Origin: Chloroflexota bacterium
Lineage (GTDB): Bacteria; Chloroflexota; Anaerolineae; Caldilineales; Caldilineaceae
Assembly: GCA_039028975.1 (NCBI GenBank)
Contig: JBCCHB010000104.1
Location: 1 to 60,392 of the forward strand
Length of the DNA: 60,392 nucleotides
Direction of reading: 5' to 3'
Below, one piece after another: positions 3,631 through 56,321 of this stretch. Each line of letters starts with the position of its first letter. Within the stretch, counting starts at the first letter, position 1. The translations under genes and the position numbers were made by a program. The notes beneath the pieces were generated by a model. The model made no database searches, was not told the origin of the DNA, and was given only the letters and a program-made list of their open reading frames with translations.

Positions 3631-3688
3631 AACTGACTATACGCGTAACGCGTAGCCATTTCAATGAAAATCGACACTGCCTCATCTT

Positions 3689-6542: not shown

Positions 6543-6612
6543 CAAGGCACATTTTCACAGGGCTGCACCAAAACGCAGCCCTTACTATTACACTTACTTC
6601 ACGGAGTATCTC

Positions 6613-7269: not shown

Positions 7270-7399
7270 ATCGTAGACTGGCCGCTTTGGTATAAGAGCG
7301 GCCTGTTGCATTGGGCATCTATTAAGCGTAACCATTTTACGTCACGGGAAGCCATATTGCCACTTGATTTGTACGCCTTTTTAGCATACAATTGGGTGT

Positions 7400-7699: not shown

Positions 7700-7864
7700 T
7701 CGGTGGCGGCACAATCATTTTACACGCAGTTGCTCACACGGATGTATCCCTTTGATCAAGCAGCGATGTATTTCTATCAGAAGTATCGTTTTCTTTCCTT
7801 ACCAGTTATGTTGAATATACTGTTTATCGAGATGGCAACGATCTGGAACAAGTTTGCCGTCTGA

Positions 7865-8617
7865 ATGGATATGAGTCAATGCAAAAGTGATACGGACATA
7901 GTTATTTTTGTCTACGGTGCAATGTTATCATTACGTTCTCAATTACAGGCCAAGATTGTTTTAAAAGTCATTTCGGTCGTTTCATTTGTCATCGCATTTA
8001 TTTGGTTCGTTGTCGAACCAGGTTTCGAGCCGATCCTGGCATTTCTGGGAGGAACCGCAGCCCTAATATCCTCTTTTGTTGATTCTGGTCAACAAAGTAA
8101 CGACGATGAAACAAGCTCTAATTTGGTGAATCAAACGGTTCGGCATGACAAACAGTATGATTATTTGACATCATCGCTACACAAAAAACCAGTCGAAAGA
8201 CCCAAAATCAAGTATAGGCCCACTCAAGATAAGGTAGTGGAAGATAAGCTTTACGATGCATTCATATCGCTAAGAAACCTATCATTCATTATTCTAATAT
8301 TCTCTTTATTCATGGTATGCGTTTTGACAGCAATGATGATTGCCCGGCTAGATGGCATACCGCTGATTGGATTCATCTGGCTAGTGACCATATTTAGCAT
8401 CTTTATATTCATGATGAAGACTCTTTATCGACGAATATCTGTTACGGGTTATTATGGCAAGATAAAGCTTGTTGACACACGAGAAACCATAAAACATTCA
8501 CTACAAAAACGAACCTGGGGAAACGTATTCACTAACATTTATATGGAGGCAGTCATTTCCTTTTTGCTCAAAACTAAGAAAAGGGAAGCTGATAAGCTTA
8601 TGGGCTGGTTTGGATAG
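7865..8617 (+). CDS. Polytopic (about 4-TM) membrane protein of unknown function, translationally coupled to the downstream peptidase.
   Basis: Hydrophobic segments 'IVLKVISVVSFVIAFIWFVV', 'ILAFLGGTAALISSFV', 'LSFIILIFSLFMVCVLTAMMIA', 'IPLIGFIWLVTIFSIFIFMM'. AT-rich codon usage. Stop at 8615-8617, 37 nt before the next ATG. Confidence 0.6.
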   Translation: MDMSQCKSDTDIVIFVYGAMLSLRSQLQAKIVLKVISVVSFVIAFIWFVVEPGFEPILAFLGGTAALISSFVDSGQQSNDDETSSNLVNQTVRHDKQYDYLTSSLHKKPVERPKIKYRPTQDKVVEDKLYDAFISLRNLSFIILIFSLFMVCVLTAMMIARLDGIPLIGFIWLVTIFSIFIFMMKTLYRRISVTGYYGKIKLVDTRETIKHSLQKRTWGNVFTNIYMEAVISFLLKTKKREADKLMGWFG

Positions 8618-8654
8618 AGCCAGCAGTAGGCAGTTTGTTAGGGAGAATTGGATT

Positions 8655-10040
8655 ATGGACAGTTTCGGCAATCAAGAATTGTTATATTTTAATGGCATTA
8701 ATGGTTTTACTGGTGAATATGGATTACCACCCATGTCATACGAAGAATTTGGGGAATTTATACGAAATGAACGGCCACCTCAAAATTTGGGCGACCTTAA
8801 GTTGCGACGTCAGTTAATTGCCAAAGAGAACCTTTATACAAAGGAAGGGGTAGATCCTAAAAAATTATCAGAAGCAGGCTGGGGTATTATTTTTGCTCAT
8901 GACGGTGATCCAAAGATTAAGGAAGCCCTCACCCCCCTTCTTGACCTGCGTTCCCAACAGGCTGGACAATATTTCAAGATTTATGATGGGAACGATGGAT
9001 ACCGACCTAATGAAACAAAAACCAGATTTCTTGCTAGGCATGGAGGTGGCCCTGGCCCAGCAGATCCCGAAAAGGTTCCGTATTACCTGCTGATTGTCGG
9101 CACTCCAGAGGCTATACCCTATCAATTTCAATATTTATTGGATGTACAGTACGCTGTTGGCCGAATTAGTTTTGATACAGTACAAGAATATGAGAATTAT
9201 GCCAAGAGTGTAGTTGCTGCTGAAACAAATGGGATACGAGGTCCAGAACGTTGCTGTTTTTTTGGTACGTCCAACCAAGATGATCGAGCTACGAATTTCA
9301 GTGCAACTCACCTGGTTCAGCCTTTATACAAGGAATTTTCTGGAAATAATCCTACTTGGGAGTCTGAATCCTTCATAGGTACACGGGCTACCAAAACAAA
9401 GCTTAAAGAACTTCTTGGAGGAAAGCAGGCACCTGCCCTTTTGTTTACTGCTACTCACGGTATGGGATTCCCTAAAGAGCATTCTCTTCAGGCCAGCCAT
9501 CAAGGTGCTTTATTATGTCAAAATTGGCCAGGACCAAAAAAGTGGCAACAACCGATCCCACAAGATTTTTACTTTTCAGAAGATGATGTGATCAGTGATG
9601 CAAATATGCTTGGACTTATAATGTTTTGTTTTGCATGTTATTCGGCTGGTACCCCTCTCTATAATGATTTTGACCGAAATCAGAACGAGCCCATTGCGTC
9701 ATCTCCGTTTATTGCAGGTTTGCCAAAAAAAATTCTGGGGAATACAAGTGCTGCTTTAGCTTTTGTTGGTCACATAGAACGAGCTTGGTCATACTCATTT
9801 CTTTGGCCTGGTGTTGGCGAACACACTATTGTCTTTCAGGATGTATTGAAGCGCCTCATTGATGGTCATCCGATTGGATCGGCAATGGAGCCAATTAATC
9901 AACGTTATGCAGAACTTGCAACTGTCACAGATTATTTGAACTCCGAAGATATTGACGATAATATTGGCGTATGGACAGCAAAAAACGACTCGCGTAACTA
10001 TATTATCATCGGTGATCCTGCCGTGCGTGTATCTAGTTGA
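8655..10040 (+). CDS. Clan-CD (caspase/legumain/gingipain-like) cysteine peptidase homolog. The ORF track starts at a TTG at 8610; the ATG at 8655 has a GGGAGA RBS.
   Basis: Putative catalytic His in 'ALLFTATHGMGFP' and Cys in 'MFCFACYSAGTP', ~54 aa apart (HG ... AC.S.G, as in legumain 'DHG...EACESG'). N-terminal beta-strand-like 'YYLLIVGTPEAIP'. Confidence 0.55.
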   Translation: MDSFGNQELLYFNGINGFTGEYGLPPMSYEEFGEFIRNERPPQNLGDLKLRRQLIAKENLYTKEGVDPKKLSEAGWGIIFAHDGDPKIKEALTPLLDLRSQQAGQYFKIYDGNDGYRPNETKTRFLARHGGGPGPADPEKVPYYLLIVGTPEAIPYQFQYLLDVQYAVGRISFDTVQEYENYAKSVVAAETNGIRGPERCCFFGTSNQDDRATNFSATHLVQPLYKEFSGNNPTWESESFIGTRATKTKLKELLGGKQAPALLFTATHGMGFPKEHSLQASHQGALLCQNWPGPKKWQQPIPQDFYFSEDDVISDANMLGLIMFCFACYSAGTPLYNDFDRNQNEPIASSPFIAGLPKKILGNTSAALAFVGHIERAWSYSFLWPGVGEHTIVFQDVLKRLIDGHPIGSAMEPINQRYAELATVTDYLNSEDIDDNIGVWTAKNDSRNYIIIGDPAVRVSS

Positions 10041-10133
10041 GGTGTAACAGAGAATATGTCCACTTGCTCTGATTTGACACTGCAATCAACAGACCATGAC
10101 TGATATAAAGTAAAAATCTCACTCCTTACCAGT

Positions 10134-10664
10134 CTAATTTGGCGCAATCAGATCTGTTACATTGGCAATTGCGCAATTTATGGCATCGCTAGGCTTCAAA
10201 GTAGGATCATGGCAGACCAAATTAGTTAATTCCTCAAATAGAAGCCTGACACCAACCATGTCAATAGGAAGGTGATATGCAAAAATCTGGGAAGCCCCCG
10301 TTTTTTTACGAATATCATCAATTTCAGAGCGAAAATGTAAATCATCGCCACAAGAATTCAAGATGATGAATTGCCCTTTGAAATTATCATGTTGTTCGTT
10401 TAAATCCTTAAGTATGCCCTCATTCAAGCCAGAATTGTGCCCAGCAACGAATACAGTGTTAACTGATGCTTGAGCTAAAGCTTCGATATTTGGGTAAGTC
10501 TCTATTTTTTTTTCTTGTGCATATTTTTCGATTTGTATCCCTGCTTGTATTTGTCTATCATCCAATCTGCGCAAATCTATCCATACTGCCATATTCCATT
10601 TACCATCGGCTCCCATTAGAGGTTGTTCATTAATTAAGTTTCGAATCGTATCTGTGAGGACCAT
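10134..10664 (-). CDS. Minimal (176-aa) CHAT/caspase-like domain protein.
   Basis: 'TVFVAGHNSGLNEG' (His-Gly) and 'QFIILNSCGDD' (Cys), spaced as a caspase-fold dyad. AGGAGA RBS 8 nt upstream of the ATG. Contains an A10 tract (10504-10513). Confidence 0.5.
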   Translation of the reverse strand: MVLTDTIRNLINEQPLMGADGKWNMAVWIDLRRLDDRQIQAGIQIEKYAQEKKIETYPNIEALAQASVNTVFVAGHNSGLNEGILKDLNEQHDNFKGQFIILNSCGDDLHFRSEIDDIRKKTGASQIFAYHLPIDMVGVRLLFEELTNLVCHDPTLKPSDAINCAIANVTDLIAPN

Positions 10665-10696
10665 TTCTGATTCTTCTCCTAATTGTGTTCACTGAC

Positions 10697-12667
10697 TCAA
10701 ATCATAGTCATACTTTTATCTAACAACATCGATATATACGAAAGCCCAGTCTGTAGCGCACGTAGATTATCTTTCTGAATATCAGTTAAATCGTCCCTTC
10801 CTAAAGTAGAATTTATTGCCTCATGGAGTAAGGGTGAAAAACCTTTACTGATTGCTTCGTCTGACTTAGCAAGCTCAATAAATTCATCAAGCACAATTTC
10901 TAGGGTCTCCAGCATCACCATCCCATCATATGCGAAAACGCCGCGGACTCCAGTGCTAGTAATGAACGAACTATCGAAGCGGCGTTGTTCATCATGATCC
11001 ACTGCTAGTATTGCTACATAACATTCCTGAAGGTGTTCAACACTAGTCGCTATAGGCAAGGATGATCTAGAATTTGTATCGAAGGGGGGGATAAAGTCAC
11101 TTTGTTGATTTGCTGAAATATAAAGAGCATTGGAACATCCATCCTCATCGAATTTATTTTGTGTAACAATCCCATTATTATCAGCTAGAGACTTTAGCTG
11201 CGCCAGGCGTTCTGAACTTGCAGGGCCGAATGAATCTTCATCAATTATCAGCGTCAGATTCCAGTTCCCATTGTTGTCCAATACAGGACGTTGGCCCTCA
11301 AGATTAGCTAGTGCAATTATTGGATCATCATCTAGTGAAACATTTTTGACGCCTCGAGTTTTCGCAATCATAGCTAATCCATGCGCGATTCCACGTCGAA
11401 GTTCTCGCTCTGCCTTGTTCGATGTTAGCCCGGTAACGAAAACTAGATTTTCTTGTTTCTCGGAGAATAGAAATTCAAAAACATCTGTAAAGTCAGGAAA
11501 CTCATATTGTAATTCCAGGTTGTAAAGATGTTGTAGACAATAATCTCCGACCGCACATTTTATTTCGACATTTAGATCTGTTAGAGATATACCCTCAAAA
11601 ACCCTAAATTCTCGCCCACGTTGTACTAACAAATACCCATTTAACTCATCGACATAAATAGCGGGGTACCCCTTCATTGTCATGGCCGCAACGCCCAGTC
11701 GATTTCGCAGCCAGTAATCAATTGAAAACGATTTTCCCATAAATGCCCACATGCCATTTGCATTTGTCTTACCTATAGCATCAAGGAAGTTTAGTATTTG
11801 TTGAGCGCCTATATTATCATCGTTAGCGAAGAACGTCCGTCCAAATTCCGATACTGCATCAAATTCTACGTCAATAATTTCACCTTTTTTTGTATGCCAG
11901 AGCGTGAGTTTATCGCCCCACTCTGTTGTACCAGGTGTAACGTCAGTACCATTTTCCCATAATGCGTGGAAAAATTTTTCCTCTGAGCCAACTTCATAAT
12001 TTAATGCACGATTGTTGTAGCCAAATATGTCTAGGTCTGACAGATAGAGTTCTGGTAATGATTTTCTTTGTGTTGGTGTTAGGCTCAGAAGATTTAGAAG
12101 AAGAAATGTTTCTATTTCGTTCCCAGAAAGTTCTTGATAATTTGCTTGACCTCCCCCCCGTAGCTCAAGCAAATTATCAAGAGCTTCCAGGTCTCCAGAA
12201 CTTATACGGGGCCTAAGTAGCTCATACGCATGAGCTATATCTTCATCTACCCAAAAAGGTTGTGGGTAAGCGCTATTAGGTGAGAAAAAATCGTATTCAC
12301 TAATATCGTATTCGCTAATATACATGTCAACTAGCACTACTCTTTTGGTCGTATCATATCTTACACTGTTATCTAGTTGTGATTGTAAAAGTTGTTCCAA
12401 AGCCCTTGAGGTTCCAGTTCTTGCACTAAGGTTGACTAACTCTGGAGATAATCCATTAACCGTAAAAGAGCGACCACCATAGGTAATCATATTACCTGCT
12501 ACCGACCCTCCAACCACCCTAGTACCGGAAGATATTGTCCGTAAAATTTGTCGAATCAGGGAAGCTTGTTGGGTAGGCGATGCGTAAGCAGGTGCAAAAA
12601 AAATTACTGTCAAAATTAAGGTGATGCTAATTATTGTAATTCGTAGGAAATATCTCAACATTATCAC
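10697..12667 (-). CDS. Large secreted protein (656 aa) of unknown function with an N-terminal signal peptide. Operonic with the 176-aa CHAT-like gene.
   Basis: 'MIMLRYFLRITIISITLILTVIFFAPAYASPTQQ' (signal peptide, A-Y-A|S cleavage-like). 32-nt gap to the downstream gene. In-frame 15-bp tandem duplication (ISEYDISEYD) at 12291-12320. Confidence 0.6.
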   Translation of the reverse strand: MIMLRYFLRITIISITLILTVIFFAPAYASPTQQASLIRQILRTISSGTRVVGGSVAGNMITYGGRSFTVNGLSPELVNLSARTGTSRALEQLLQSQLDNSVRYDTTKRVVLVDMYISEYDISEYDFFSPNSAYPQPFWVDEDIAHAYELLRPRISSGDLEALDNLLELRGGGQANYQELSGNEIETFLLLNLLSLTPTQRKSLPELYLSDLDIFGYNNRALNYEVGSEEKFFHALWENGTDVTPGTTEWGDKLTLWHTKKGEIIDVEFDAVSEFGRTFFANDDNIGAQQILNFLDAIGKTNANGMWAFMGKSFSIDYWLRNRLGVAAMTMKGYPAIYVDELNGYLLVQRGREFRVFEGISLTDLNVEIKCAVGDYCLQHLYNLELQYEFPDFTDVFEFLFSEKQENLVFVTGLTSNKAERELRRGIAHGLAMIAKTRGVKNVSLDDDPIIALANLEGQRPVLDNNGNWNLTLIIDEDSFGPASSERLAQLKSLADNNGIVTQNKFDEDGCSNALYISANQQSDFIPPFDTNSRSSLPIATSVEHLQECYVAILAVDHDEQRRFDSSFITSTGVRGVFAYDGMVMLETLEIVLDEFIELAKSDEAISKGFSPLLHEAINSTLGRDDLTDIQKDNLRALQTGLSYISMLLDKSMTMI

Positions 12668-13629
12668 TTCCTTATTATTTTACTGAGGAAAATAAAATTA
12701 ATAAATCAAACTGCGTCTCATCGAACGATTGTTAAACAATCCCCTATGTGTGTTGGGTTACTCTTCCTAATTGATTTTATCATATGAAACCTTCCGGGTA
12801 ATTCTGTAAGTTGTTGGTCGCGCACAATGATTGAGGAAGACAATACAAGGTGTGCTGAGAGTGTTCCTAGTGGCTGATAACACCCATATGACAGATAGTC
12901 GTATGAAGACATTTACACTGAAACTAATCAGAAGATTGTTATTGTACGAGTGCTTAGATTTGGGCAAGCATTTGTCGGTTGCTTTCTAACCCCAGGTCCT
13001 GGACGTTTTATTTTAATTCCACAACAATGATCATTTGTTCCTCAGCGTTTACCGTTTTTGCGATGTTGAATCGCTCAATATGGTATTTCAGTTGGTAATT
13101 GCTTCATTTTTGCAAACTATTTGTACCAAAAGTAACCCTTCAGCCACCCTAAAATTAAATCGATATAAAGTCTAATAAGAATCAGTAGATCGCAATCCAA
13201 CCTCTTCACGAGGTGGCGGAGTCGAGATTCTTCGCTAGGCATGTACCGAATAGCTTGGTAACCCAAGCCATAACACGGTTTTGTCTCACGGAAATAGTGG
13301 TGGCTCAGAATGATATTGCGATCTACTAAGTATAGTATCTATAGACGTAAAAGCCTGTCTATTTCTTTCACAAAGGACTTCCTGTCGTAACAGGCTCAAC
13401 TGGCACGTAGTAAATACTGAAGTGCGTTTCGTGAGAATGCTATCGATAGGACCAGCGGGCTTAGATGGACAGAAGCCTACACTTTTAGATTTGTTTTGAG
13501 GGTTGAAAGCGTAGGTTCTTGTTCGAATCGGCTTAGGAGTCCTTCGTCGGTGAAGTATGTGCCATTGGGTAGCACATGCTTGTATGGGAGTAGCGAGATG
13601 TGTGACAGGTTTTCATCGTCGGTGGTTTC

Positions 13630-13896
13630 TCACCGCTGCCGCAAGTTTTCAACGATGCTGTCTATTTTGATGGTGTTCCAGTAGAGTACGGCGTTGGAAA
13701 CAAGGCTGAGACAACTGGCCTTGTTCATGATTTCTTCGTAATTTCCGGTCGTGAACTCTACCTGGTCTGCAAAGAAAATCCGCTGTGGTAATTTATGACG
13801 ATACTCTCCTTTGTTGAGCTGTAGCTGGACGGTTCGACGTAAATCCGGATCGGTGAGATAGCGCAGAATATATTCTGTTTTGATGATACGCCCCAA
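13630..13896 (-). pseudogene. Tn3-family transposase (TnpA) C-terminal fragment. Remnant only.
   Basis: 'GEYRHKLPQRIFFADQVEFTTGNYEEIMNKASCLSLVSNAVLYWNTIKI' matches the conserved C-terminal region of Tn3 TnpA. No upstream continuation of the frame. Confidence 0.75.
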
Positions 13897-14003
13897 ATGA
13901 GTGAATGCTTTAGATAGACGGTCTGATGGGTAACTGCTGGTTAGGCGCTGTACGATAACATGAACAGGAGCAGTTCGTTGTTCCAGCGAGGTTATGGTTG
14001 ATA

Positions 14004-14237
14004 TTAGATGTCTTCCTTTTCGGAGGCTATCCTCAGTGATTTATCAAGCGTGGCTACCTGAAATTGACGCCGCAAAGCCAATTCTAGGTAACAGGCATCG
14101 TAGGTTGTCAGACGGTAGGTAGTCATCACGGGGACCATACGCTCGATCTCCGGGGGGGTGGCCGCCTCCGTGTCAATAGTCAAGGTCAAACATCCGATTG
14201 GCTTCAAAGGCTCCGATTTCCTGCACCGTGCTCCCAT
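14004..14237 (-). pseudogene. PIN-domain (VapC-like) toxin C-terminal fragment.
   Basis: 'TYDACYLELALRRQFQVATLDKSLRIA' resembles a VapC C-terminus. The N-terminal half is missing or frameshifted. Confidence 0.5.
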
Positions 14238-14478
14238 TCATCTGGACATCCAGACTACTGTAGCAGAATGGTGGAAAGAAAGAGATTCTTTCTGCCCTAT
14301 GAAACTTTATGGATCATACTGTTTCAACTTTCTGCATTCTCTGTCCCTCAACGGCTCATCACCATACATGATCAATGGGCTGATTTTTGACAGGATTTAT
14401 AGGTTCTCATGATGGATCGATGGCGACATCTTTCCATGAAATCCTGTCCCATCCTGACTTGCATGAAACGTTAGATAG

Positions 14479-14730
14479 TTGTATTGTTTCACTATGCGGT
14501 ATGACACCGAAAAATGGCAGGCCAAACGGTGGGAAACGGAGCGCCGTTACTACGTGGCCGAACTGCGTCAGGATCTGTTTGGTGGCTGGTGTATTGAACG
14601 GCATTGGGGAGCACGTTACAGTCGGCAGGGAAATAGTCTGACCATCTCTGCAAACGACTACGTTCATGCGCTTGAGCTGCTTGAGGAGGTTGCCAAACGG
14701 AGACAGCTTCGGGGGTACGCCCATGCCTGA
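14479..14730 (+). CDS. WGR-domain protein.
   Basis: 'RRYYVAELRQDLFGGWCIERHWGARYSRQGNSL' matches the WGR-domain pattern (RyY.....DLFG.w.v...WGRiG..Gq). Confidence 0.6.
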   Translation: MYCFTMRYDTEKWQAKRWETERRYYVAELRQDLFGGWCIERHWGARYSRQGNSLTISANDYVHALELLEEVAKRRQLRGYAHA

Positions 14731-15301
14731 TGTCCTCCATGACCAGGAAGGCCACCGCAAATACCTCAATAAGGCCGAGCGGGAAGCTTTCTTAAAAGCA
14801 GCACTCGATGAAGAACGGGAACGGCGCACTTTCTGCGAGATGTTACATTACAGCGGTGCGCGGATTTCTGAAGTGCTGGCGATCACCGCAGGCCGCATCG
14901 ATCTCGACACGCATAGCGTCACGCTGGAAAGCCTCAAAAAGCGGCAGCGGGGTATTTTCCGCATTGTTCCCCTGCCTTCTTCTTTCGTCGAACGGCTCGA
15001 TTTGGTACATGGGATTAAACAGGCACAGAAAAAGGGTAAAGAGGAGGTGTGGCTTTGGACATGCAGCCGTACCACCGCATGGCGTATTGCCAAGGGTGTG
15101 ATGCAGCGGGCCGGAGTGATAAGCAGCGCCGCCACACCCAAAGGACTACGGCACGGTTTCGGTGTCGCAGGCGTTACCCATGAAGTGCCGCTCAATATGG
15201 TGCAGAAATGGCTCGGACATACCGACATCGCCACCACCGCCATCTACGCCAATGCCATTGGTGAAGAAGAACGGCAAATTGCACAGAGAATGTGGGAGTG
15301 A
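14666..15301 (+). CDS. Small tyrosine recombinase/integrase (catalytic domain only). Likely start is Met at ~14723.
   Basis: Catalytic-residue context 'ARISEVLAI' (Arg), 'HGLRHGFGV' (His-x-x-Arg), 'IATTAIYANA' (Tyr nucleophile). Confidence 0.75.
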   Translation: MRLSCLRRLPNGDSFGGTPMPDVLHDQEGHRKYLNKAEREAFLKAALDEERERRTFCEMLHYSGARISEVLAITAGRIDLDTHSVTLESLKKRQRGIFRIVPLPSSFVERLDLVHGIKQAQKKGKEEVWLWTCSRTTAWRIAKGVMQRAGVISSAATPKGLRHGFGVAGVTHEVPLNMVQKWLGHTDIATTAIYANAIGEEERQIAQRMWE

Positions 15302-15393
15302 AAACCCTCATCACCACGTCTTTAAATATTGTGAGGCATTAGAAAGATTTTATTCCATAAAAACGTTGTACAGTTTATTTGCAATTCTTACAT

Positions 15394-15583
15394 ACTCTAA
15401 TTGCTAACCTCTATTAGTGCTTTTGCTAGAGAAAGAAACTAGTTCGGCTTGTTATGTCAACTCCGCCTGATATGTGTGGAAAACACAGCATCAGGCATCC
15501 AAACAATTTACCGTCACGCACTGTATGCTGTGTGCCTTTTAAATTAGCCACTATATACATCCAGAGTAGGTTAGCAATTAGAG
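15394..15583. repeat. Perfect 16-bp inverted repeat (CTCTAATTGCTAACCT / AGGTTAGCAATTAGAG) separated by 158 bp, ~90 bp downstream of the integrase gene.
   Basis: Left arm 15394-15409; right arm 15568-15583 is its exact reverse complement. Confidence 0.5.
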
Positions 15584-15874
15584 TTACATATCTTAATACC
15601 AATTTTAAAAAATTACCCAACCTCTGACACATGTCGTTCAGGCTAAGAGGTTATATTATCAGAATACCCCTATGATGATGTTTGAATGATTATTAGATGA
15701 CCGTGAATGAATATTCAGCGGAAAGGATGCGCTGTAGGGGTTTGAAGTCCAACGGTACAAAAACGCGGGAAATAACTAAAACTTCAATGTTACCCCCTCT
15801 ACAATCTATCGGCTGTAAGTTGCATGGTATCAGAGTGGTTTTATTTCGCAGATATACGCCGATCTAAAAATTAA

Positions 15875-16636
15875 ATGTATACACAGCATCCAGTGTTCAT
15901 GCCCCCTGAAAACGATAGCGCTCGGATTTGGCGATATTTAGATTTCACAAAACTAGTGTCACTATTTGAATCACAATCGCTCTTCTTCGCTCGTACAGAC
16001 AAACTCGGTGATCCCTTTGAGGGATCTTGGCCACAAAAAAACTTGCGCGTGGTAAGAGATAACCTTCCCGATATTCCTGTTGACAAGCATGAAATCTATT
16101 TTATGGACGTGGCCAACATTAGCAATCTCTTGAAAAAGTGGGCAGAGTGCAATGCGATCAGTTGTTGGCATCTAAATGAGCAAGAATCCGCGGCAATGTG
16201 GAGACTATATCTTAAGAGTGATGAGGGAATTGCAATTCAATCGACATTTGCACGTCTTCGTGATTCGATAACCGATGACAGAACCGTTTACATTGGAACA
16301 GTCCGCTACATTGATTATGAGACAGATTGGTTTGATCCAATTAACCTTTACGAGGCTCTGCTACACAAAAGAAAAAGCTTTGAACATGAGAGAGAATTGA
16401 GGGCTGTTGTCACAGCAATATCAACCGGTCCAGAGGAAAGAGAAATCGACTTTAGCAAGTCAGAAATTACTGATGGAATCAAGATCGCTGTGAATGTTAA
16501 TATGCTGATTGAAAATATTTACGTAGCTCCTGATGCGCCAACATGGTTTACGGATCTCGTGAGTTCTATTGTCAACAGGTACAAATACAAGTTCAATGTC
16601 CAACAATCGAAGTTGTCTGAGAGACCAATCTACTAA
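15875..16636 (+). CDS. DUF2971-family protein (abortive-infection-associated family).
   Basis: 'IWRYLDFTKLVSLFESQSLFFARTDKLGDPFEG' matches the DUF2971 N-terminal signature (YrY.s...l..l....l.fs....fNDPfE). Confidence 0.55.
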   Translation: MYTQHPVFMPPENDSARIWRYLDFTKLVSLFESQSLFFARTDKLGDPFEGSWPQKNLRVVRDNLPDIPVDKHEIYFMDVANISNLLKKWAECNAISCWHLNEQESAAMWRLYLKSDEGIAIQSTFARLRDSITDDRTVYIGTVRYIDYETDWFDPINLYEALLHKRKSFEHERELRAVVTAISTGPEEREIDFSKSEITDGIKIAVNVNMLIENIYVAPDAPTWFTDLVSSIVNRYKYKFNVQQSKLSERPIY

Positions 16637-16737
16637 ACGAGAACGATCCGATATATACATGGCACCGCTTTCATTTTCAATGAATCATGTGTTTATGCTT
16701 TGTCCTGCACCTTGGGCGAGCTGTGCCAAACGCATAT

Positions 16738-18351
16738 CTAACCTAATACAAACCTAATATCGCTGGGATTTACATTTTCAGATGATATTAGTCTAACTTG
16801 CTCTGAGCCACCAAGGTTCTCCATTAATAACTCCGCTTGGGCAAGAATGTATGCTTCGTTCATATTCCGTCCTGAAGCAATAGACTCGTAAAAAGCAGAA
16901 GCAAAGGCAATGGCAGACACATTTTCTATCTCACCCTCAATACCAATAACACAGTCAACATGACACGATATCTGCGTTGCTTGAGTATGTGAGTAACAAG
17001 AATTTAGTACTACACAACGGATATCGCCCTTAAATCCTCTAAAAATTTCGCTGAGTGTATGAGGCTCTACCCGATGATAAGTTCCTGTGTTATTTTCAAA
17101 GAGTAATGCCCCATTCTTTACGCCATGTCCACTAAAGTGAACTATAGTGGGTCTATAGTAAAGTAAATACCGTAAGACGTCTCTCGCTTTAGTCGCCCAT
17201 ATTTGCTGAATCGTAAATTGTTGTCCATAAATAGCCCGATTCAATGATTCAAAAATTTCTCTATGCTCTTTTCCGAGCTGAAGCCAAACCCTATCAGAGG
17301 GTTCGGCAGCTAAACAAAGTATTACATTTTTTTCAATATGATTGTCGTTTGATTTAGGCTGAAACTGTTGTTCTATAGTGATCGAATAAGACTCTAATTC
17401 AGGATGTTTATTCCCCAATTCATACACGAGTTGATGTGCGTCCTTCTCCGAAAGTTCTAACGTAACACGCACACTACCGGAGCTAATATTTTGCAAGAAA
17501 ACTCTCTCTGAATCTATGTCGGCAGCAGCACAAATAGCTGCGATTAAATCATCGAGATGTTTAGGTGTATAGGTAGCTATATCATTTGGGATGGATATGG
17601 TAATCTGACCACGTGATCGGTCTTTGCGTAAACGGTCGATAGCATCTTGCAAGAATTCAACATCAGCCGAGTTTTCCCGCTTGCTAAACATGTCTTGGGT
17701 ATTGTGACGACTGTTGTTAGTATCCACCTCATTAGTCAGAAGAGTATACCCAAGTTCTTGCCGTTCTCTGGTACCTATCGGGTCCCAACCCCACTCCTCT
17801 TCTAATATAGTCCATACCTCTTCAAAAAACTCAGGATTCTGGCTTAATCGCAGAGTATCCAAGAGATACATTATAAAGGAAAAGCGACGCGTGGCGCGAG
17901 GTTTGGCTATACCTTGCTCCCATGCTGCAACTGTTTTTCGAGCCTGTCGGCCGGTTAGACCTAACATTTTTGCTGCTTCAGCTTGTGATAGCCCAACCCC
18001 TTCGCGTAGCTGACACAGAATTTGAAGACGAGACGTAGTGGAACGTTGATTGCGATCTCTTGAGGAAAAATCTTCATTAAGTGCTTTTAGAGTTGGGTTC
18101 CCTGGATTATAGTCATGTGCACTTTGGATCAATTCATAAACTCGATCTGTCGCAACAGACCATTCGATGAGGCTAGATACGATTGATGCCAGATTGCTAC
18201 CAGATGCAATCCTATCCAGGGATACGTTCATCTCTACTTGAACCATCATGCGCAAAGCATCTTTGGTTCGGTAGCCATCCAGGAGCGCTTCCTTAATCTG
18301 TTTTATTTGAGAACCGTCCGGCTTCATATGGCTCTCTGTCTTACCTTCCAC
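16738..18351 (-). CDS. Effector-associated-domain (EAD-like) + HTH + C-terminal CHAT/caspase-like domain protein.
   Basis: N-terminus 'IKQIKEALLDGYRTKDALRMMVQVEMNVSLDRIASGSNLASIVSSLIEWS...NPGNPTL' is EAD-like. Central 'LSQAEAAKMLGLTGRQARKTVAAWEQG' is an HTH. C-terminal 'TIVHFSGHGVKNGALLF' (His) and 'IRCVVLNSCYSH' (Cys) form a caspase-fold dyad. Confidence 0.6.
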   Translation of the reverse strand: MEGKTESHMKPDGSQIKQIKEALLDGYRTKDALRMMVQVEMNVSLDRIASGSNLASIVSSLIEWSVATDRVYELIQSAHDYNPGNPTLKALNEDFSSRDRNQRSTTSRLQILCQLREGVGLSQAEAAKMLGLTGRQARKTVAAWEQGIAKPRATRRFSFIMYLLDTLRLSQNPEFFEEVWTILEEEWGWDPIGTRERQELGYTLLTNEVDTNNSRHNTQDMFSKRENSADVEFLQDAIDRLRKDRSRGQITISIPNDIATYTPKHLDDLIAAICAAADIDSERVFLQNISSGSVRVTLELSEKDAHQLVYELGNKHPELESYSITIEQQFQPKSNDNHIEKNVILCLAAEPSDRVWLQLGKEHREIFESLNRAIYGQQFTIQQIWATKARDVLRYLLYYRPTIVHFSGHGVKNGALLFENNTGTYHRVEPHTLSEIFRGFKGDIRCVVLNSCYSHTQATQISCHVDCVIGIEGEIENVSAIAFASAFYESIASGRNMNEAYILAQAELLMENLGGSEQVRLISSENVNPSDIRFVLG

Positions 18352-42299: not shown

Positions 42300-43757
42300 A
42301 TGTCGCCAGAGAATGGAAGCCAAATACAAGCTGAATATCGGCGTTTGCCCTCAGTAGAGGCGCTTCTGCGTGTATCAGAAGTTTCATATCTTACAGGTGC
42401 CTACGGGGTTATGCAGGTTACGGAGGCACTTCGTACTTTGCTCCAGTCAGCGCGTCAAAAAATCCGTGAAGGGCAATCTGCACCAGCACCCACATCTTGG
42501 CCTCATCTTCTTCAAGCTCATTTAACCCAACTTTCCCAGCCCCTCTTGCGCCCAGTCATTAATGCAACCGGCGTAATAATCCATACCAACTTAGGTCGCG
42601 CCCCCTTGAGTGTTGCCGCCCGTCAGGCTGTGACTGATGTGACCCTTGGTTATAGCAATCTGGAATATGATCTGGATGCTGGAAAGCGGGGGAGTCGCTA
42701 CAGTCACGCCAGGGAGCTGCTGGTAGAATTGACCGGTGCTGAAGATGCGTTGGTGGTTAACAATTGTGCAAGCGCTCTCTTTCTAACTCTTCGTGCTCTC
42801 TGTGAGGGGCGGGAAGTGGTTGTGAGCCGAGGGCAATTGGTAGAGATTGGCGGTGGGTTCCGTATTCCAGATGTGCTTCGTCAAAGTGGAGCGACTTTAG
42901 TTGAGGTCGGGACGACCAATCGGACTCATCCGCGAGATTTTGCTGAGGCAATCTCAGAAAACACGGCTGCATTGATGCGGATCCATTCGAGCAACTTTCG
43001 TTTGATCGGTTTTGTTACAGAGCCAGGGCTGGATCAATTGGTTGATGTCGCGCTTCAGGCTGTGCTGTCCGATGCCGCTTCACATTGTGAGGGGAACTTG
43101 GAGCCACGGGAACGTTCATTGGTTATTGATGATCTAGGAAGCGGGACGCTATTGGATACTCAGCCTTATGGTCTGCTAGCTGAACCTATGGTTCAGCAGA
43201 GCGTGGCTGCTGGTGCAGATGTTGTGGTGTTTAGTGGTGATAAATTGTTGGGTGGACCACAAGCTGGCATTCTAGTTGGAAAGGCCGACTGTATTGCTGA
43301 GTTACGTCAACATCCTTTGGCCAGAGCATTGCGGGTAGATAAGATGACCTTGGCAGCTTTGGAGGCGACCTTGCGCAGCTATCGCTCAGGCCGGGCATTG
43401 CAAGAGATTCCCGTGTGGCGAATGATCAGTGGGACAGTTGAGCAAATGAAGAACATGGTTACTGATTGGCAAACTCAGCTAGGCGTCTGCGGCATCGAGA
43501 GTAGCCAGTGGGAGGGTGAGAGTGCCGTGGGGGGGGGAAGCCTTCCTGGTGAAACGTTGCCAACCTCCTTATTGTCCTTGCCTGTCTCAGCCTTCGGGAA
43601 GAACTCAGATGACGTAGCGACAGACTTACGCAGTCTGGATTTTCCCATCATCTGTCGGATCCAGCGAAACCATTTACTCTTTGACCCACGAACTGTGTTG
43701 CCAGAGCAACATGATAAATTAGTACAGGGTATTTTGGGGATAGCGGATGGTGGTTAG
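42300..43757 (+). CDS. selA: L-seryl-tRNA(Sec) selenium transferase (selenocysteine synthase SelA).
   Basis: 'INATGVIIHTNLGRAPL' and 'VVVFSGDKLLGGPQAGILVG' (PLP-lysine region) are SelA hallmarks. Confidence 0.8.
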   Translation: MSPENGSQIQAEYRRLPSVEALLRVSEVSYLTGAYGVMQVTEALRTLLQSARQKIREGQSAPAPTSWPHLLQAHLTQLSQPLLRPVINATGVIIHTNLGRAPLSVAARQAVTDVTLGYSNLEYDLDAGKRGSRYSHARELLVELTGAEDALVVNNCASALFLTLRALCEGREVVVSRGQLVEIGGGFRIPDVLRQSGATLVEVGTTNRTHPRDFAEAISENTAALMRIHSSNFRLIGFVTEPGLDQLVDVALQAVLSDAASHCEGNLEPRERSLVIDDLGSGTLLDTQPYGLLAEPMVQQSVAAGADVVVFSGDKLLGGPQAGILVGKADCIAELRQHPLARALRVDKMTLAALEATLRSYRSGRALQEIPVWRMISGTVEQMKNMVTDWQTQLGVCGIESSQWEGESAVGGGSLPGETLPTSLLSLPVSAFGKNSDDVATDLRSLDFPIICRIQRNHLLFDPRTVLPEQHDKLVQGILGIADGG

Positions 43758-51126: not shown

Positions 51127-52392
51127 ATGAAAAAGAAATGCTTTGTTCGCATAGTTCAAATCTGTTTGTCTACTGTTATACTATTATTCGTAACGAGCTG
51201 CCAAGCCACCTTCTCGACATCTTCTGAAGAGACGCGCTCATGGTCTAAACAGGCTCCTCTACAAGCCGCGGTTCAAACGCTGAAGCAAGATGAAACAGGA
51301 ATAGAAGAACCTGTTTCAGGTGAACTTGATGCAGATAGCTCGATTGTAAATGAACCTAGTTCAGATAATCCTAGTTCAGATGAGGTTGATTCTGTTGAGG
51401 CTAATGTGGTTGTGGCTGACACTGACGTGGCTGATCCTGGGGCAGCCTTATCGGATGAAGTATCTGCATACAAACCACTGCCTGTACCTATAGCACCGCT
51501 TGCCAGGGTGTCAGACGCCCAACTTCAGTCGACCCGCAAAAATGCGTTAGAACGAATGACATTTGCCACACGGAAAGCTGAGCCAGATTCGCCATATTAT
51601 CATACGACGTGGTTAACTTATTATGGGCGCCCAAATATAGGCGTGATGGGGATCTTGGGTGAATATGACATCAATACCCTGGTACGGTTATTGCGCACCA
51701 AAGCAAACGAGTATGATGATGCCAATGGCGCTGGCATCTCGGTGATGCCTGCTTTCCACTTAGTGTATGGAATGGCAACCCGGGCACCTGGTGTTCGGGG
51801 TGACTATCTCAATTTTCTGAGCGATGAGACGGTCATGGAGTATATTGAGCGGGCTGAAGAAGAAGGCTTTGCGGTGATACTGGATATCCAGATCGGTGGC
51901 TTGACACCCGTTGCTTCCATGCGCTATGGCTTCCCTTATCTTAAATACCCTAATGTTCATCTCGCGGTTGACCCTGAATTTGCCTTGGTACACCCAGACC
52001 AAGCCGTTCCCGGCAACCCCATCGGCTATGTCACGGCAGAGCAGGTGAATCAGGTGCAGGCAGCCATGTTTCAACATATGATCATCAATGGAATCCGGGA
52101 TAGAAAGATCCTTCTGGTACACCAATTTCTAGATGAAATGATTCGGGATAAAGAGGATCTAGACCACAGCTATCCGATTGATCTAACTATCTCGGTTGAT
52201 GGGTGGGGGGGGCCTGGGGGTAAGATCAGCAAATATAATATCTTTGTCGATAAGAGTGACGAATTCAGCTCCTTCAAACTATTTTATGGTTGGGATGTAC
52301 CCCTGTTAACACCTTCTCAAGCGCTTGGCCTTGAATCTTACGATGACTATCTAACCATCGATGTCATGCCAAATATGATCATTTATCAATAG
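51127..52392 (+). CDS. Secreted/lipoprotein candidate with an acidic low-complexity linker and a C-terminal putative glycoside-hydrolase-like TIM-barrel domain.
   Basis: Signal peptide 'VILLFVTSCQATFS'. The function call is weak. Confidence 0.4.
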   Translation: MKKKCFVRIVQICLSTVILLFVTSCQATFSTSSEETRSWSKQAPLQAAVQTLKQDETGIEEPVSGELDADSSIVNEPSSDNPSSDEVDSVEANVVVADTDVADPGAALSDEVSAYKPLPVPIAPLARVSDAQLQSTRKNALERMTFATRKAEPDSPYYHTTWLTYYGRPNIGVMGILGEYDINTLVRLLRTKANEYDDANGAGISVMPAFHLVYGMATRAPGVRGDYLNFLSDETVMEYIERAEEEGFAVILDIQIGGLTPVASMRYGFPYLKYPNVHLAVDPEFALVHPDQAVPGNPIGYVTAEQVNQVQAAMFQHMIINGIRDRKILLVHQFLDEMIRDKEDLDHSYPIDLTISVDGWGGPGGKISKYNIFVDKSDEFSSFKLFYGWDVPLLTPSQALGLESYDDYLTIDVMPNMIIYQ

Positions 52393-52398: not shown

Positions 52399-53805
52399 AT
52401 GGATCCATTTAGCGATCACCCCTTCGACGAACCTTATCTAGAACCGGTGAGCCAATCGGCACCGATCAAAATGGTCCCGGCCAATATTGAGTCCGAGATG
52501 GCAGTATTGGGCTCTTTATTGATCGATCCTGACGCCATTGTAAAGGTTGCCAACTTCTTGCGCGTTGAAGATTTCTACCGCGAGCGTCATGGCTGGATTT
52601 ATGGGGCTATCCTGGCTCTCAACGAACGTCGGGAACCTCTTGATCCCCTCACCCTGACTGATGAACTCGATAGGCGTGAGCAGCTCGACGAGATCGGCGG
52701 TCCAGCTTACCTCAACGATCTGATGGGTACCACACCCACAGCGATTCATGTTGATCACTATGCCCGCATTGTAGAGCGGACAGCGCTCCTTCGCCGCCTC
52801 ATCTCGGCTGCTGGCAAGATTGCTGAACTAGCCTATGATGAAAGCCAAGATCCAGACCAAGTAGTGGAACGGGCTGAACAGATCATCTTTGGCGTTAGCG
52901 AGAGTCGCATTCATCGCGATCTAACGCCCATTCACTCCATTATGCAAGAGGTTGTGAACCGGCTCGACTTTATGGCCCGCAACCAGGACGCACTCATGGG
53001 CGTGCCAACTGGCTTTCAGGCGCTGGATCAGATGCTTGGCGGCTTCCAACAGAGCGATCTGATTATCCTGGCAGCACGACCCGGCATGGGCAAATCCTCT
53101 TTTGCGCTTAGCCTAGCCTTAAATGCCGTCCGTAATCTCCGGTCCCGAATCGGCATCTTTAGCTTGGAGATGAGCAATGATCAAATGGTGCAGCGCCTGC
53201 TCGCCATGGAGACCCGGATCGACAGCCACCGTCTACGATTGGGACAGGTTCATGATGACGAATGGACCATTGTGCTAGAGGTCGCCAACACCCTCGCCAA
53301 CACCAGCATCTTTATCGACGATACGCCAGGCGCAACAGTGAATGACATCCGAACTAAGTCTCGTCGTCTCTATGCCGAGCATGGGTTGGATCTAATCGTC
53401 ATCGACTACATGCAATTGATGACCGGCCAGCAGACCGCCGGGCGAGGTGAAAATCGTCAGCAGGAGATCAGCTACATTAGTCGCTCTCTCAAAGAGATTG
53501 CCCGTGAATTGAATGTACCTGTGCTGGCGTTAAGTCAGCTAAGTCGCGCTGTAGAGAGCCGGGCCGATAAGCGACCTATGTTGTCTGACTTGCGTGAAAG
53601 TGGATCGATAGAGCAGGATGCGGACGTCGTCATGTTCATTTACCGAGAGGATTACTACATTCCAGACACGGATCGACAAAATATCGCCGACATCATTGTC
53701 GCCAAGCATAGGCACGGCTCAACCGGTACTGCAAGCCTCTATTTCCGTAAAGAGCTGACTCAATTTAGTGATATGGAAGTCCAGAGGACAGAGCTAGATT
53801 ACTAA
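52399..53805 (+). CDS. dnaB: Replicative DNA helicase DnaB.
   Basis: Walker A '[16 protein letters not shown]'. '[10 protein letters not shown]' (Walker B). '[19 protein letters not shown]' (RecA-like arginine-finger region). Confidence 0.9.
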
Positions 53806-53938
53806 CTATGCTTTGCTAGACAGTTTGATAGAACAAATGTATAATTCTGCCTAGAGTCATAGAATTCGTTGTAGCGCTAATGATTTCAGAGGTAGCAGAC
53901 CTTTTTATTGATCCCTTTGGAGAGCAACCAGTAGACTT

Positions 53939-54781
53939 ATGAGCCAAAATACTGCCTTTATTGGGTTTCCCGATAAAAAAATGAATCCAATTGTTGTACC
54001 GGATTACTTTTTTAGTGATCTGCTTCCCTTAATTGATAATTTGGCCGAGCTAAAGTTGACCATGCACTGCTTTTGGTTGCTAAACGAGCAGAGTGGCGAT
54101 TTGCGCTATTTGCGGGGTGACGATTTGCGTAGCGATACCCAACTTCTCTCTAGCTTGAGCGCAGATGATCTTCGCCCTCCGCTGACTATTCTAGACGATG
54201 CCTTGGAACGGACCGTCGCTCGCAATACGTTGCTGCGCCTGGAGATTACTGCGCCGGGCGAGCCAGATGAATTGGGTTTAGGACTGGGCAACGAGCCAAA
54301 GAGTGGAGAAGAGGAGTTACTTGAAGATTGGTACTTTATGAATACGGTCAAGGGACGGCAGACGCTGGCTTTGATTCGTCAGGGGCAACTGACGGAACTT
54401 CTGCCTGTTCTGCCCGAAGAGGCAAAGCTCAAAGTGGACCGACCGATTATCTTTATTCTCTATGAGCAAAATGTGGGAATGTTGTCACCCATGATCGCCG
54501 ACCAACTGCGGGATCTTGAAAAGACCTATCCACCCTCTTGGATCGAGGAGGCATTTGAGATTGCCGTAAGCCGCAATGCCCGCAACCTGAAATATATTCT
54601 CGCCATTCTCAAACGTTGGGAAACAGACGGACGAGATACTGCCAAGCACAAGAGTGCTGGAACAGATACTCTAGGAAAGAGCAATCAATATGAAAGGAAT
54701 GGACGACCTGCTGGGGAACGACGAGTCCCAGAGAGCGGATATGATATCCCAGATGATCTCAAGGACATCATCATCGGGTAG
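53939..54781 (+). CDS. DnaD-domain replication initiation/primosome protein.
   Basis: C-terminal '[32 protein letters not shown]' matches the DnaD/DnaB_2 YxxxIxxxW motif. Positioned between dnaB and the helicase loader. Confidence 0.55.
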
Positions 54782-56195
54782 TAGAGGACGACGGCGAAAT
54801 CGGCCCGAGGCTCCAGTCCATCAGATTACCCTACCGGATAGAGATCTAGCCAATCCCAAAGAAATCACACCAGAAGTTAGCTGCACCCGATGTAATGACA
54901 TGGGCTTTTTAACAGTAGATGTACCCATGGGGCATCCTGAATTTGGCAAGGCGATTCCCTGCTCATGCCGAGCGCAAGAGAGAGCCTATCGCAAGCTGAA
55001 TCGTCTTTTGCGGATGAGCAACCTAGATGGCCTAGAGCCATTGACCTTTGACAGATTTGATGCTTCTCCAGAGCACCTATCAAGGGAGCACAAGCATAGC
55101 CTGCACTATGCCAGCACAACCTGCCAGCATTTTGCCCAGCAGCCTGAAGGATGGTTATTGATCACTGGAACTTATGGCTGCGGAAAGACCCATCTCGCGG
55201 CAGCAATTGCCAATGAACGGCTCAATGCAGGTCATTCGGTTCTCTTTCAAGTCGTACCAGATCTGCTCGATCACTTGCGGCGTTCATTTGGCCCTAATAG
55301 TGATGTGACCTATGACGAGCTTTTCGAGCAGGTACGCTCGACACCTCTGCTGATTTTGGATGATCTGGGGGCACAACATAGCAGCGGCTGGGCGCAGGAA
55401 AAACTCTTCCAACTGCTCAATCATCGTTATAATGTAAAGCTACCCACCGTTATCACCACGAACCTCCGCATGGATGAGATCGAACCTCGCTTACGTAGCC
55501 GTCTTCTTTATGTTCAATTTGTGAATCATGTGTTGATTACAGCACCTGATTTCCGCGTTGAGCAAGGGGCTACGAGTAATTACGGGTTGAGTACCCTACG
55601 TCTTCATCAGGATAAGCGCTTTGATACCTTTGAAACTCGACGTAATGAGCTAACAGCTCAAGAGCGAGCAAACGTACAAACGATCTATGATTTCTGTTAT
55701 CAATACGCCGAAAATCCGACGGGATGGGTTGCTATCAATGGTACCTACGGTGCTGGTAAGACTCATCTTGCCGCAGCCATCGCCAACCATCGACTCGATA
55801 GGGGACTTGGAGACGTACTTTTCATCGTGGCTCCAGATCTGCTTGATCATCTTCGCTCTACTTACAGCCCAACAGCAACCACCACTTACGATCGCCGGTT
55901 TGATGAGATTAAAAATACACCTATGTTGATCTTGGATGATCTGGGCACGGAAAGTGCTACTCCTTGGGCGAAGGAGAAGCTCTTCCAGTTGTTGGACTAT
56001 CGCTATAGCGCTTCCCTGCCTACTGTGATCACAACTACCATTCACGTCGATGATATTGAACCATGGCTCCTTACTCGTATCAAGGATGTAAGCCGTTGTC
56101 GAATATGCGTGCTCTCATGTCCCAGTTTCCGGGGCAGCCCGACCCAACAGCAGCAGACCGGAAAAGGGCGTAGGTCAAATGGTGGAAAGAGATAA
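54690..56195 (+). CDS. DnaC/DnaI-like helicase loader with an N-terminal Zn-binding region and two tandem AAA+ (IstB-like) ATPase modules. The annotated ORF overlaps the upstream gene by 92 nt, so the start is uncertain.
   Basis: 'CTRCNDMGF...CSC' (Zn). Module 1 '[24 protein letters not shown] ... LLILDDLG'. Module 2 '[24 protein letters not shown] ... MLILDDLG'. Confidence 0.75.
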
Positions 56196-56321
56196 TTTTG
56201 CTCTGTTTGACAGCAAATTTGTTGTCTGCTAGAATCACGAGAGGCCATAGGCACACGCCTAGTTGGCCTTTTTATTTGGCCTGAATTTTTATTGGTTTCG
56301 TAAGGCTGACAGGAGGGAATC

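Follow-up and report, generated by a model that had tools for sequence, protein, structure and literature searches.

Bacterial helicase loading is understood from DnaC and DnaI, both single-module loaders that act six per helicase. Escherichia coli DnaC (6qel/6qem; PMC8213410) consists of one AAA+ module without a zinc domain and forms a 6:6 complex, while DnaI of Bacillus subtilis and Geobacillus (4m4w, 2w58; PMC2673437) has an N-terminal zinc domain followed by an initiator-clade AAA+ module, works with a DnaD-type partner and binds as six chains per helicase hexamer. IstB of IS21/IS5376 (5bq5, 8q3w) belongs to the same AAA+ subfamily (PF01695), is likewise single-module and acts on duplex DNA as the partner of the IstA transposase. 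Here, we analyzed a window of 60,392 nucleotides from a Chloroflexota bacterium (contig JBCCHB010000104.1 of assembly GCA_039028975.1, the whole stretch of DNA under study), in which one gene encodes a homologue of these loaders with two AAA+ modules in a single chain.

The predicted protein shares with DnaI the order of zinc domain and AAA+ fold and the DnaD-type partner, but differs from it in having two modules rather than one; the B. subtilis DnaB-type co-loader is not present in its gene cluster. As read from its sequence, the loader breaks two regularities of the family, the single AAA+ module per chain and the invariant Arg-coupler. For replication specialists, a two-module loader is somewhat surprising. 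Full-text literature searches returned no description of a tandem-AAA+ loader or of module asymmetry, and the homologous sequences are public under the annotations "ATP-binding protein" or "DNA replication protein DnaC".

Domain architecture of the loader

The loader gene is an unbroken open reading frame of 501 amino acids plus stop at 54690..56195 on the forward (+) strand. Its product is organized as follows.

54690..54713 (+), residues 1-8: N-terminal peptide MKGMDDLL, with the family motif M-[KE]-x-[LVM]-[GD]-[DE]-[IL]-[LA]
Residues 20-61: variable segment, predicted to be disordered from low conservation and the AlphaFold2 (AF2) model
54882..54968 (+), residues 65-93: putative zinc module C65-x2-C68-x13-H82-x8-C91-x-C93, from conservation and DnaI-like spacing; AF2 predicted local distance difference test (pLDDT) 62-73
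55002..55559 (+), residues 105-290: AAA+ module 1, from alignment and DnaC motif mapping; AF2 pLDDT 80-97
55560..55583 (+), residues ~291-298: flexible linker; AF2 pLDDT <50 in both runs
55578..56135 (+), residues 297-482: AAA+ module 2, from alignment and DnaC motif mapping
56136..56192 (+), residues 483-501: basic, poorly conserved C-terminal tail; low pLDDT

Residues 120-289 can be aligned with residues 311-481 (171 positions, one gap), with 48% of the residues identical and 68% similar (BLASTP E=3e-61), which corresponds to a repeat period of 192 codons, or 576 nucleotides, in the gene. Both modules open with the same lead-in, L-S-x-L ... F-D-x-F, and close with AP-x-[FY]-R. Walker A reads GTYGCGKT at residue 160 and GTYGAGKT at residue 351, each followed by HLAAAIAN, and Walker B reads LILDD at residues 221 and 413, in the context LILDDLG in both. 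The Pfam domain PF01695 (IstB_IS21) matches the protein in two stretches, as do the NCBIfam PRK08116, DnaI, DnaC and IstB models. The original prediction, made from the letters alone, had described two paralogous AAA+ modules with near-identical Walker A and Walker B blocks behind an N-terminal Cys-rich segment of DnaI type. Alignment of the halves to each other and to the DnaC, DnaI and IstB profiles, each of which matches both modules, bears out the paralogy; the Walker contexts read as quoted, and the Cys-rich segment has the CxxC-x13-H spacing of DnaI.

This spacing is that of the ligands C67/C70/H84 of B. subtilis DnaI (PMC2673437), with a difference at the fourth ligand, which is C101 in DnaI as against a CxC at x8 in the loader. 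Among the tandem homologues (n=294), Cys is found at the position of C65 in 252, of C68 in 259, of C91 in 289 and of C93 in 267, and the proteins that lack these Cys are mostly gene calls truncated at the N-terminus. By analogy with DnaI, the zinc module is presumed to be the helicase-binding domain.

AF2 was run on the full-length protein with 30 sequences and on residues 96-490 with 118 sequences. The modules were modeled confidently (mean pLDDT 79 and 86 in the two runs) with a disordered linker between them, and the predicted template modeling scores (pTM) of 0.48 and 0.53 leave their mutual orientation undefined.

Divergence of the two modules

Residue roles were taken from E. coli DnaC (PMC8213410) and mapped by alignment together with the family motif [ER]-R-x-x-[SD]-R-[ILM]; the numbering of the DnaC sequence used fits all 11 residues named in that paper. 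For the Arg-coupler and the Arg finger, a pairwise alignment with DnaC was off by four residues, the loop from sensor I to the following helix being shorter here, and the family motif was used instead. Family percentages are over 294 tandem proteins chosen for Lys at both Walker A positions. In the lines below, the module 1 residue precedes the module 2 residue, and ssDNA stands for single-stranded DNA.

Walker A (DnaC K112): K166, 100% by selection; K357, 100% by selection
Walker B (DnaC D169/E170): D224/D225, Asp 100%/96%; D416/D417, Asp 99%/90%
Sensor I (DnaC N203): N258, Asn 83%; T450, Asn 5%, Ser 47%, Ala 17%, Thr 10%
Arg-coupler (DnaC R216): R267, Arg 92%; W459, Trp 43%, Arg 38%
Arg finger (DnaC R220): R271, Arg 98%; R463, Arg 96%
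Sensor II (DnaC R237): R289, Arg 87%; R481, Arg 78%
ssDNA tetrad (DnaC K143, F146, S177, Y179): R197, F200, S232, W234; R389, Y392, T424, W426

Module 1 has the full set, that is, every functional residue defined for E. coli DnaC, including the Arg-coupler R267 four residues before the Arg finger. Module 2, in contrast, carries a Trp (W459) at this position and has lost the Asn of sensor I. By alignment, the equivalents of the ssDNA tetrad are conserved at 93% or more in both modules when Phe/Tyr and Ser/Thr are pooled. In DnaC, the N203A substitution eliminates ATPase activity and impairs loading more than any other mutation, whereas R216A makes the ATPase independent of ssDNA; the R216 Arg-coupler is described as invariant in the DnaC/DnaI family, and an Arg-to-Trp change at the analogous position of human Orc1 is linked to disease (PMC8213410). 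The two modules have diverged precisely at sensor I and the Arg-coupler, the positions by which DnaC controls ATP hydrolysis, and the "invariant" Arg-coupler is, as aligned here, not invariant. IstB lacks the Arg-coupler as module 2 does.

The two departures tend to occur together within module 2: of 15 cases with Asn at sensor I, 11 have Arg at the coupler position and none has Trp, a count that is not corrected for shared ancestry. The comparison of loci covered the best 80 of at least 588 confirmed species genomes (one genome per GTDB species). In 15 of these 80 loci, mostly labelled Ardenticatenaceae or Promineifilaceae (L024, L028, L031, L032, L034, L037, L039, L042, L044, L049, L056, L058, L066, L072 and L074), the P-loop of module 2 reads N-S-[VI]-[GA]-[YF]-G-N-G-K-T, with a one-residue insertion and loss of the first canonical Gly, while that of module 1 is canonical.

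Age of the duplication and variation in module number

Across 119 tandem proteins, N-terminal modules are 69.5% identical to one another and C-terminal modules 66.2%. Identity between N- and C-terminal modules is 49.2% within the same protein and 48.7% between proteins. A neighbor-joining tree placed the core N and C modules in separate clades with the same sister pairs, although it is unreliable for the most divergent tandems (38-40% identity). Because identity within each module type exceeds that between types, the latter is equal within and between proteins, and the two clades mirror each other, the comparison indicates one ancient duplication that would have preceded diversification of the family, with both copies apparently under purifying selection since. 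The most divergent tandem lineages may stem from independent duplications.

A HMMER search with module 1 alone returned 27,583 relatives. Among the best 150 cluster representatives, two-stretch matches predominate (128), next to 16 with a single stretch, five with three and one with four; some of the three-stretch matches are questionable, several of them showing just two Walker A motifs. In one three-module protein (P0121), the first two modules are nearly identical, which may reflect a recent duplication or a misassembly.

The full-length single-module relatives, of 276-287 amino acids, share both the N-terminal peptide and the zinc module with the tandem loader and lie near the N clade; one of their clusters (P0243) includes proteins of metagenome-assembled genomes (MAGs) labelled Dehalococcoidia. 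Single-module loaders of Chloroflexota (e.g., P0243, and P0271 in locus L082) share the operon of dnaB, dnaD-like gene and loader with an overlap of ~83 nucleotides and are 52-60% identical to module 1, but have only one AAA+ module. This single-module form is likely the ancestral state. At the other extreme, a locus with an intein-bearing dnaB and a dnaD-like gene (L081) encodes a four-module loader (P0004, at 6001-8484), whose modules are well diverged, at 38-66% identity to one another. Their position in the same dnaB/dnaD-like operon shows the one- and four-module proteins to be orthologues of the tandem loader. In P0004, modules 1-3 are canonical, and the last has Phe at sensor I and Gln at sensor II. 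Because sensor I departs only in the last module of the two- and four-module forms, both forms, as aligned, are built of at least one canonical module followed by a terminal specialized one.

A proposed loading mechanism and its alternatives

We consider the best explanation, with a probability of roughly 55%, to be a loader of the DnaC/DnaI kind that underwent an ancient internal duplication and now has two linked, differentiated AAA+ modules behind one zinc domain, so that about three chains supply six AAA+ positions. The zinc domain would dock on DnaB, as in DnaI; each module would bind both ATP and ssDNA, and the modules would line up beside one another in a DnaC-like spiral. The six AAA+ positions, which take six chains of DnaC in E. 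coli, would thereby be filled by about three loader polypeptides that bring three helicase-binding domains. Since sensor II, which serves a module's own site, sits just before the linker of about ten residues, module 2 is most simply placed at the ATP site of module 1, to which it would donate its Arg finger R463 as the neighboring module. The module 1 site would then be intramolecular and catalytic, canonical on its cis side and without an Arg-coupler on its trans side. The module 2 site, with Thr, Ser or Ala at sensor I, would lie at the boundary between polypeptides, bind ATP and hydrolyze it slowly or not at all, and be completed by R267 and R271 of the next chain. The outcome would be an ATP-dependent assembly in which hydrolysis is confined to half of the sites.

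In its most specific form, this model makes the loader of the Anaerolineae group a trimer of covalent pseudo-dimers with three helicase-binding domains per hexamer, in which the intramolecular sites are catalytic but lack the Arg-coupler gate and the inter-chain module 2 sites bind ATP for assembly with hardly any hydrolysis; this we put forward tentatively. If it is true, a homo-oligomeric bacterial loader would have evolved subunit specialization as clamp loaders and ORC-Cdc6 have, the 6:6 stoichiometry assumed for loaders may fail in some lineages, and the orthologues with one, two, three and four modules would provide a natural series in which to ask what number of active sites a loader requires. 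A naturally asymmetric loader could further help to tell which of the ATP sites have to fire, what number of helicase-binding domains is required and how ssDNA sensing is coupled to hydrolysis. Combinations of catalytic with structural or regulatory nucleotide sites, or of modules joined in one chain, occur in clamp loaders, ORC-Cdc6, p97, ClpB and engineered linked ClpX, which belong to other clades and serve other clients than the loader here; to our knowledge, none of them is a bacterial helicase loader.

Several points weigh against this explanation. The side-by-side geometry and the direction of the Arg finger come from general AAA+ topology and not from computation, as the AF2 interface is not confident (pTM 0.48 and 0.53). 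The four-module orthologue does not divide evenly into a ring of six positions and speaks against a universal rule of six modules per DnaB hexamer. Ser or Thr serves as sensor I in other AAA+ proteins, and module 2 may therefore still hydrolyze ATP. Finally, these genomes may carry a second, single-module loader outside the loci compared.

The alternative that survives best, though we hold it to be unlikely, has six polypeptides on the six DnaB subunits through six zinc domains, with the modules arranged in two stacked tiers, as in p97 and ClpB, or in an open-ended DnaC/DnaA-like filament of variable length on ssDNA. DnaC-family proteins do form open spirals, and the variation in module number (1, 2, 3 or 4) at an orthologous position is poorly explained by a ring of six fixed positions. 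Moreover, the joint loss of the sensor I Asn and the Arg-coupler in module 2 is what homotypic interfaces between C-terminal modules predict, although this correlation ignores phylogeny. Against the stacked arrangement, the linker of about ten residues right after sensor II favors an adjacent position in the same layer, and the AF2 model, the domain orientation of which is uncertain, does not superpose on p97-type D1-D2 chains, with a template modeling score (TM) of no more than 0.31 and a root mean square deviation (rmsd) of 15-20 Å.

Module 2 might instead act mainly as an intramolecular regulator or cap, a pseudo-neighbor on the oligomerization face of module 1 rather than an equal member of a working ring. 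The free loader would then stay monomeric, its ATPase being off (or else pre-activated) before it engages DnaB and ssDNA. Such a role would fit the observations that the last module alone departs from the canonical sensor I in two- and four-module proteins, that the Arg-coupler, a gate of hydrolysis in DnaC, is replaced in module 2, and that the module 2 P-loop carries the NSVGYGNGKT-type insertion in 15 of the 80 loci. Yet module 2 is almost on a par with module 1 in conservation (66% versus 70%) and keeps Walker A and B, the Arg finger, sensor II and the four ssDNA-contact equivalents, which is more than a passive cap needs, and AF2 predicts no stable intramolecular docking. We regard a cap as improbable.

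Family identity and gene neighborhood

The assignment to the DnaC/DnaI type, which the original prediction had also made, holds on several lines of evidence. The protein passes the cut-off of the PRK08116 subfamily of DnaC-like ATP-binding proteins (242.9 bits versus 189, a score that is the sum of two stretches) and remains below those of the DnaI equivalog PRK08939 (151.6 versus 228 bits), the DnaC equivalog PRK07952 (142 versus 357 bits) and the IstB equivalog NF038214 (152.8 versus 200 bits). The phage family phrog_50, "DnaC-like helicase loader", matches at 1.3e-86. By sequence, the closest solved chains are those of DnaI (4m4w, 2w58) and DnaC (6qel), the best PDB match being DnaI at E=3e-16. 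Structural comparison of the AF2 model gave 3ecc (TM 0.78 on the target) and 6qem (TM 0.64). The top PDB matches from Foldseek, p97/Cdc48 tandem chains (TM ≤0.31, rmsd 15-20 Å), were set aside as a sequential matching of two AAA+ folds that share no arrangement.

Two genes upstream complete the cluster of the loader.

52399..53805 (+): dnaB, replicative helicase of 468 amino acids, first gene of the cluster; TIGR00665 569 bits versus a cut-off of 385, PF03796, PF00772
53939..54781 (+): dnaD-like gene, 280 amino acids, with a DnaD/DnaB_2 C-terminal domain; PF07261 47.3 bits versus 22, TIGR01446 45 bits versus 24.95

The dnaD-like protein is also matched by phrog_186, "DnaD-like helicase loader". 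A dnaD-like gene lies directly upstream of the loader in 78 of the 80 loci, the other two having no upstream sequence, and a dnaB homologue lies upstream in 66. In L082 the order is rplI, dnaB, dnaD-like gene and the one-module loader (P0271). The genes that flank the cluster in the window are of housekeeping type (SelA, an M50 protease and ABC exporters), with an ABC transporter gene at 56322. For Anaerolinea thermophila and Chloroflexus, Brezellec 2016 lists one resident dna[CI] gene and zero dciA, and does not mention the architecture. Because homology to loaders, the fixed dnaB/dnaD-like synteny, the housekeeping flanks and this single dna[CI] gene agree, we infer from homology and synteny that the product is the resident chromosomal DnaB helicase loader, of the DnaC/DnaI kind.

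It is very improbable that the gene instead encodes an IS21-type IstB transposition helper, belongs to the replication genes of a prophage or specifies a defence ATPase. The Pfam domain is named IstB_IS21, phage DnaC-like and DnaD-like families match the two genes, and Brezellec 2016 infers a phage origin of resident dna[CI] genes. However, the IstB equivalog stays below its cut-off, as given above, and no IstA transposase lies beside the loader in the window. The synteny with a TIGR00665-class dnaB is fixed across the class and extends to rplI in L082, and the 858 phage records that carry a DnaC-like gene do not include a single tandem form. The window also shows no defence-system signature, PADLOC giving weak P-loop matches only, and the neighbors are housekeeping genes.

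Many of the orthologous dnaB genes appear to bear inteins (L081, L005, L008, L011, L016, L030, L041, L044, L058, L066, L069 and L080). The L081 DnaB (3433-5259) has 608 amino acids and a Pfam Intein_splicing match; in the other suspected loci, the DnaB match ends near residue 412-423 and is followed by a gap of ~1-1.5 kb. The dnaB of the window, at 468 amino acids, is without an intein.

Overlap with the dnaD-like gene and choice of start codon

54690..54781 (+): shared stretch of 92 nucleotides in which the dnaD-like gene ends and the loader gene begins, the two being read in different frames (loader +1 relative to dnaD)

The original prediction had noted an overlap of ~90 nucleotides with an upstream dnaD-like gene and left the start codon, or a frameshift, to be checked. 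The upstream gene does carry the PF07261 domain, and overlaps of 80-92 nucleotides prove to be the norm of the family. In-frame start codons upstream of the CxxC occur only at M1, M4, M18 and M22, all inside the dnaD-like gene. The family motif stands at an in-frame start codon in 41 of 72 loci and also in the single-module relatives. In most of those 41 loci, the overlap is exactly 80 nucleotides, as compared with 92 here, and it is 83 in the closest relatives (labelled Caldilineaceae or Caldilinea) and in the one-module locus L082. MKGMDDLL aligns residue for residue with MKDIDEIL, and the frame relation between loader and dnaD-like gene is identical in 68 of the 72 loci. The dnaD-like frame ends in a conserved tail of its own, of the type RRRY-I-x-G-E-Y-x-D-Y-I-x-H, followed by a stop. 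Since both frames carry conserved peptides across loci, M1 (54690) is, by N-terminal alignment, the homologous start, the overlap is old and conserved, and no frameshift is required, which settles the start-site question. Gene calls that start at M71 (e.g., P0001) truncate the zinc module, as the conservation of the CxxC implies. Inspection for Shine-Dalgarno sequences was uninformative for the choice of start, because most genes in the window are without one.

The C-terminal tail of the dnaD-like protein, encoded within the overlap, is conserved across orders (RRRYIEGEYADYIEH type) among the loci compared (L001-L082). A semi-conserved "TSSS" stretch of the loader is probably the reading of this tail in the other frame, and the tail itself could be a docking peptide. 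The conserved 80-nucleotide overlap suggests that the two loading factors are expressed in close coordination.

A programmed +1 frameshift that joins DnaD to the loader would account for a long overlap whose frame relation is kept in 68 of 72 loci, and in one database protein of 372 amino acids (P0257), what resembles the C-terminal domain of DnaD runs in frame into a loader-like N-terminus. We nevertheless give this explanation hardly any weight. A frozen frame relation is expected of any old overlap, the start-led peptide (MKxLDEIL) is found in 41 of 72 loci, the DnaD frame has its own tail and stop, and PF07261 occurs in none of the 120 homologues listed. P0257 lacks the CxxC, looks error-laden and probably comes from a frameshifted contig.

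Distribution across genomes

The tandem loader is widely distributed. A protein search gave 8000 scored homologues, and the 120 matches listed are all 419-827 amino acids long, 118 of them with two canonical Walker A motifs. The tandem gene was confirmed in at least 588 species genomes (588 of at least 600 matching stretches), nearly all of them with Chloroflexota labels of the Anaerolineae group. It is present in all of the best 80 loci compared, which are labelled Caldilineales, Ardenticatenales, Promineifilaceae, Anaerolineales or plain Chloroflexota, with one Deltaproteobacteria. It also occurs in records titled complete chromosomes, such as OZ243888.1. The locus labelled "Deltaproteobacteria bacterium" (L063, JAOSJX010000008.1) has a Chloroflexota-type operon of dnaB, dnaD-like gene and tandem loader, and this MAG is probably mislabelled or mis-binned.

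The closest relatives of the loader come from Caldilineales-labelled genomes. In the closest species genome among the best 80, the loader is 59% and DnaB 75% identical; with nearest relatives at these values, the organism would belong to a lineage that is related to Caldilineales and has no close representative.

The same data bear on two doubts raised with the original prediction, that the tandem might come from an assembly duplication and that orthologues might be uniformly single-domain, this locus carrying a recent in-frame duplication. DNA identity between the two modules is 53.5% overall and falls to 33.5% when third codon positions alone are counted; 32 of the 82 codon pairs that encode the same residue in both modules share the codon. 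Repeats between the modules, at the 576-nucleotide period, reach 29 and 17 nucleotides at most, with no long ones. A protein 100% identical to the loader is found on an independent Logan contig (P0001). Anaerolineae-group orthologues are uniformly two-module, and the duplication is ancient (N- and C-terminal modules 49% identical), so that the tandem is real and a recent in-frame event is ruled out. The possibility that the assembly duplicated a module, or that a sequencing error confined to this contig fused two neighboring genes, can be dismissed given the divergence of the modules with saturated third positions, the lack of any repeat beyond 29 nucleotides, the identical independent copy and the same architecture in at least 588 species genomes.

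Other features of the window

56239..56281 (+): terminator-like GC-rich hairpin followed by a U-run; RNA fold of 56196-56300 at -32.1 kcal/mol, z = -3.3, hairpin at 56239-56272

The hairpin and U-run at 56239-56281 are probably the terminator of the cluster of dnaB, dnaD-like gene and loader; a simple terminator scan did not report them. Right after the loader stop, at 56207-56235, lies a strong sigma-70-like promoter match (TTGACA-17-TAGAAT with TG, 11/12). It precedes the hairpin, and both stand ahead of the ABC transporter gene, an odd order that could represent a leader or attenuator. A further promoter-like site (TAGACA-17-TATAAT, 11/12) is found at 53817-53845, within the 133 nucleotides that separate dnaB from the dnaD-like gene, and could provide the latter and the loader gene with a promoter of their own.

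Just upstream of dnaB, 51127-52392 encodes a protein of 421 amino acids with a lipoprotein-like N-terminal signal (…LLFVTSC) and an acidic low-complexity region, for which no Pfam match was found at E≤1e-5. The selA gene at 42300-43757 encodes selenocysteine synthase (SelA; PF03841, 435 bits), which implies that the organism uses selenocysteine. Finally, the region 8001-18000 has a GC content of 0.40-0.42 compared with ~0.49 elsewhere and could be a horizontally acquired island.

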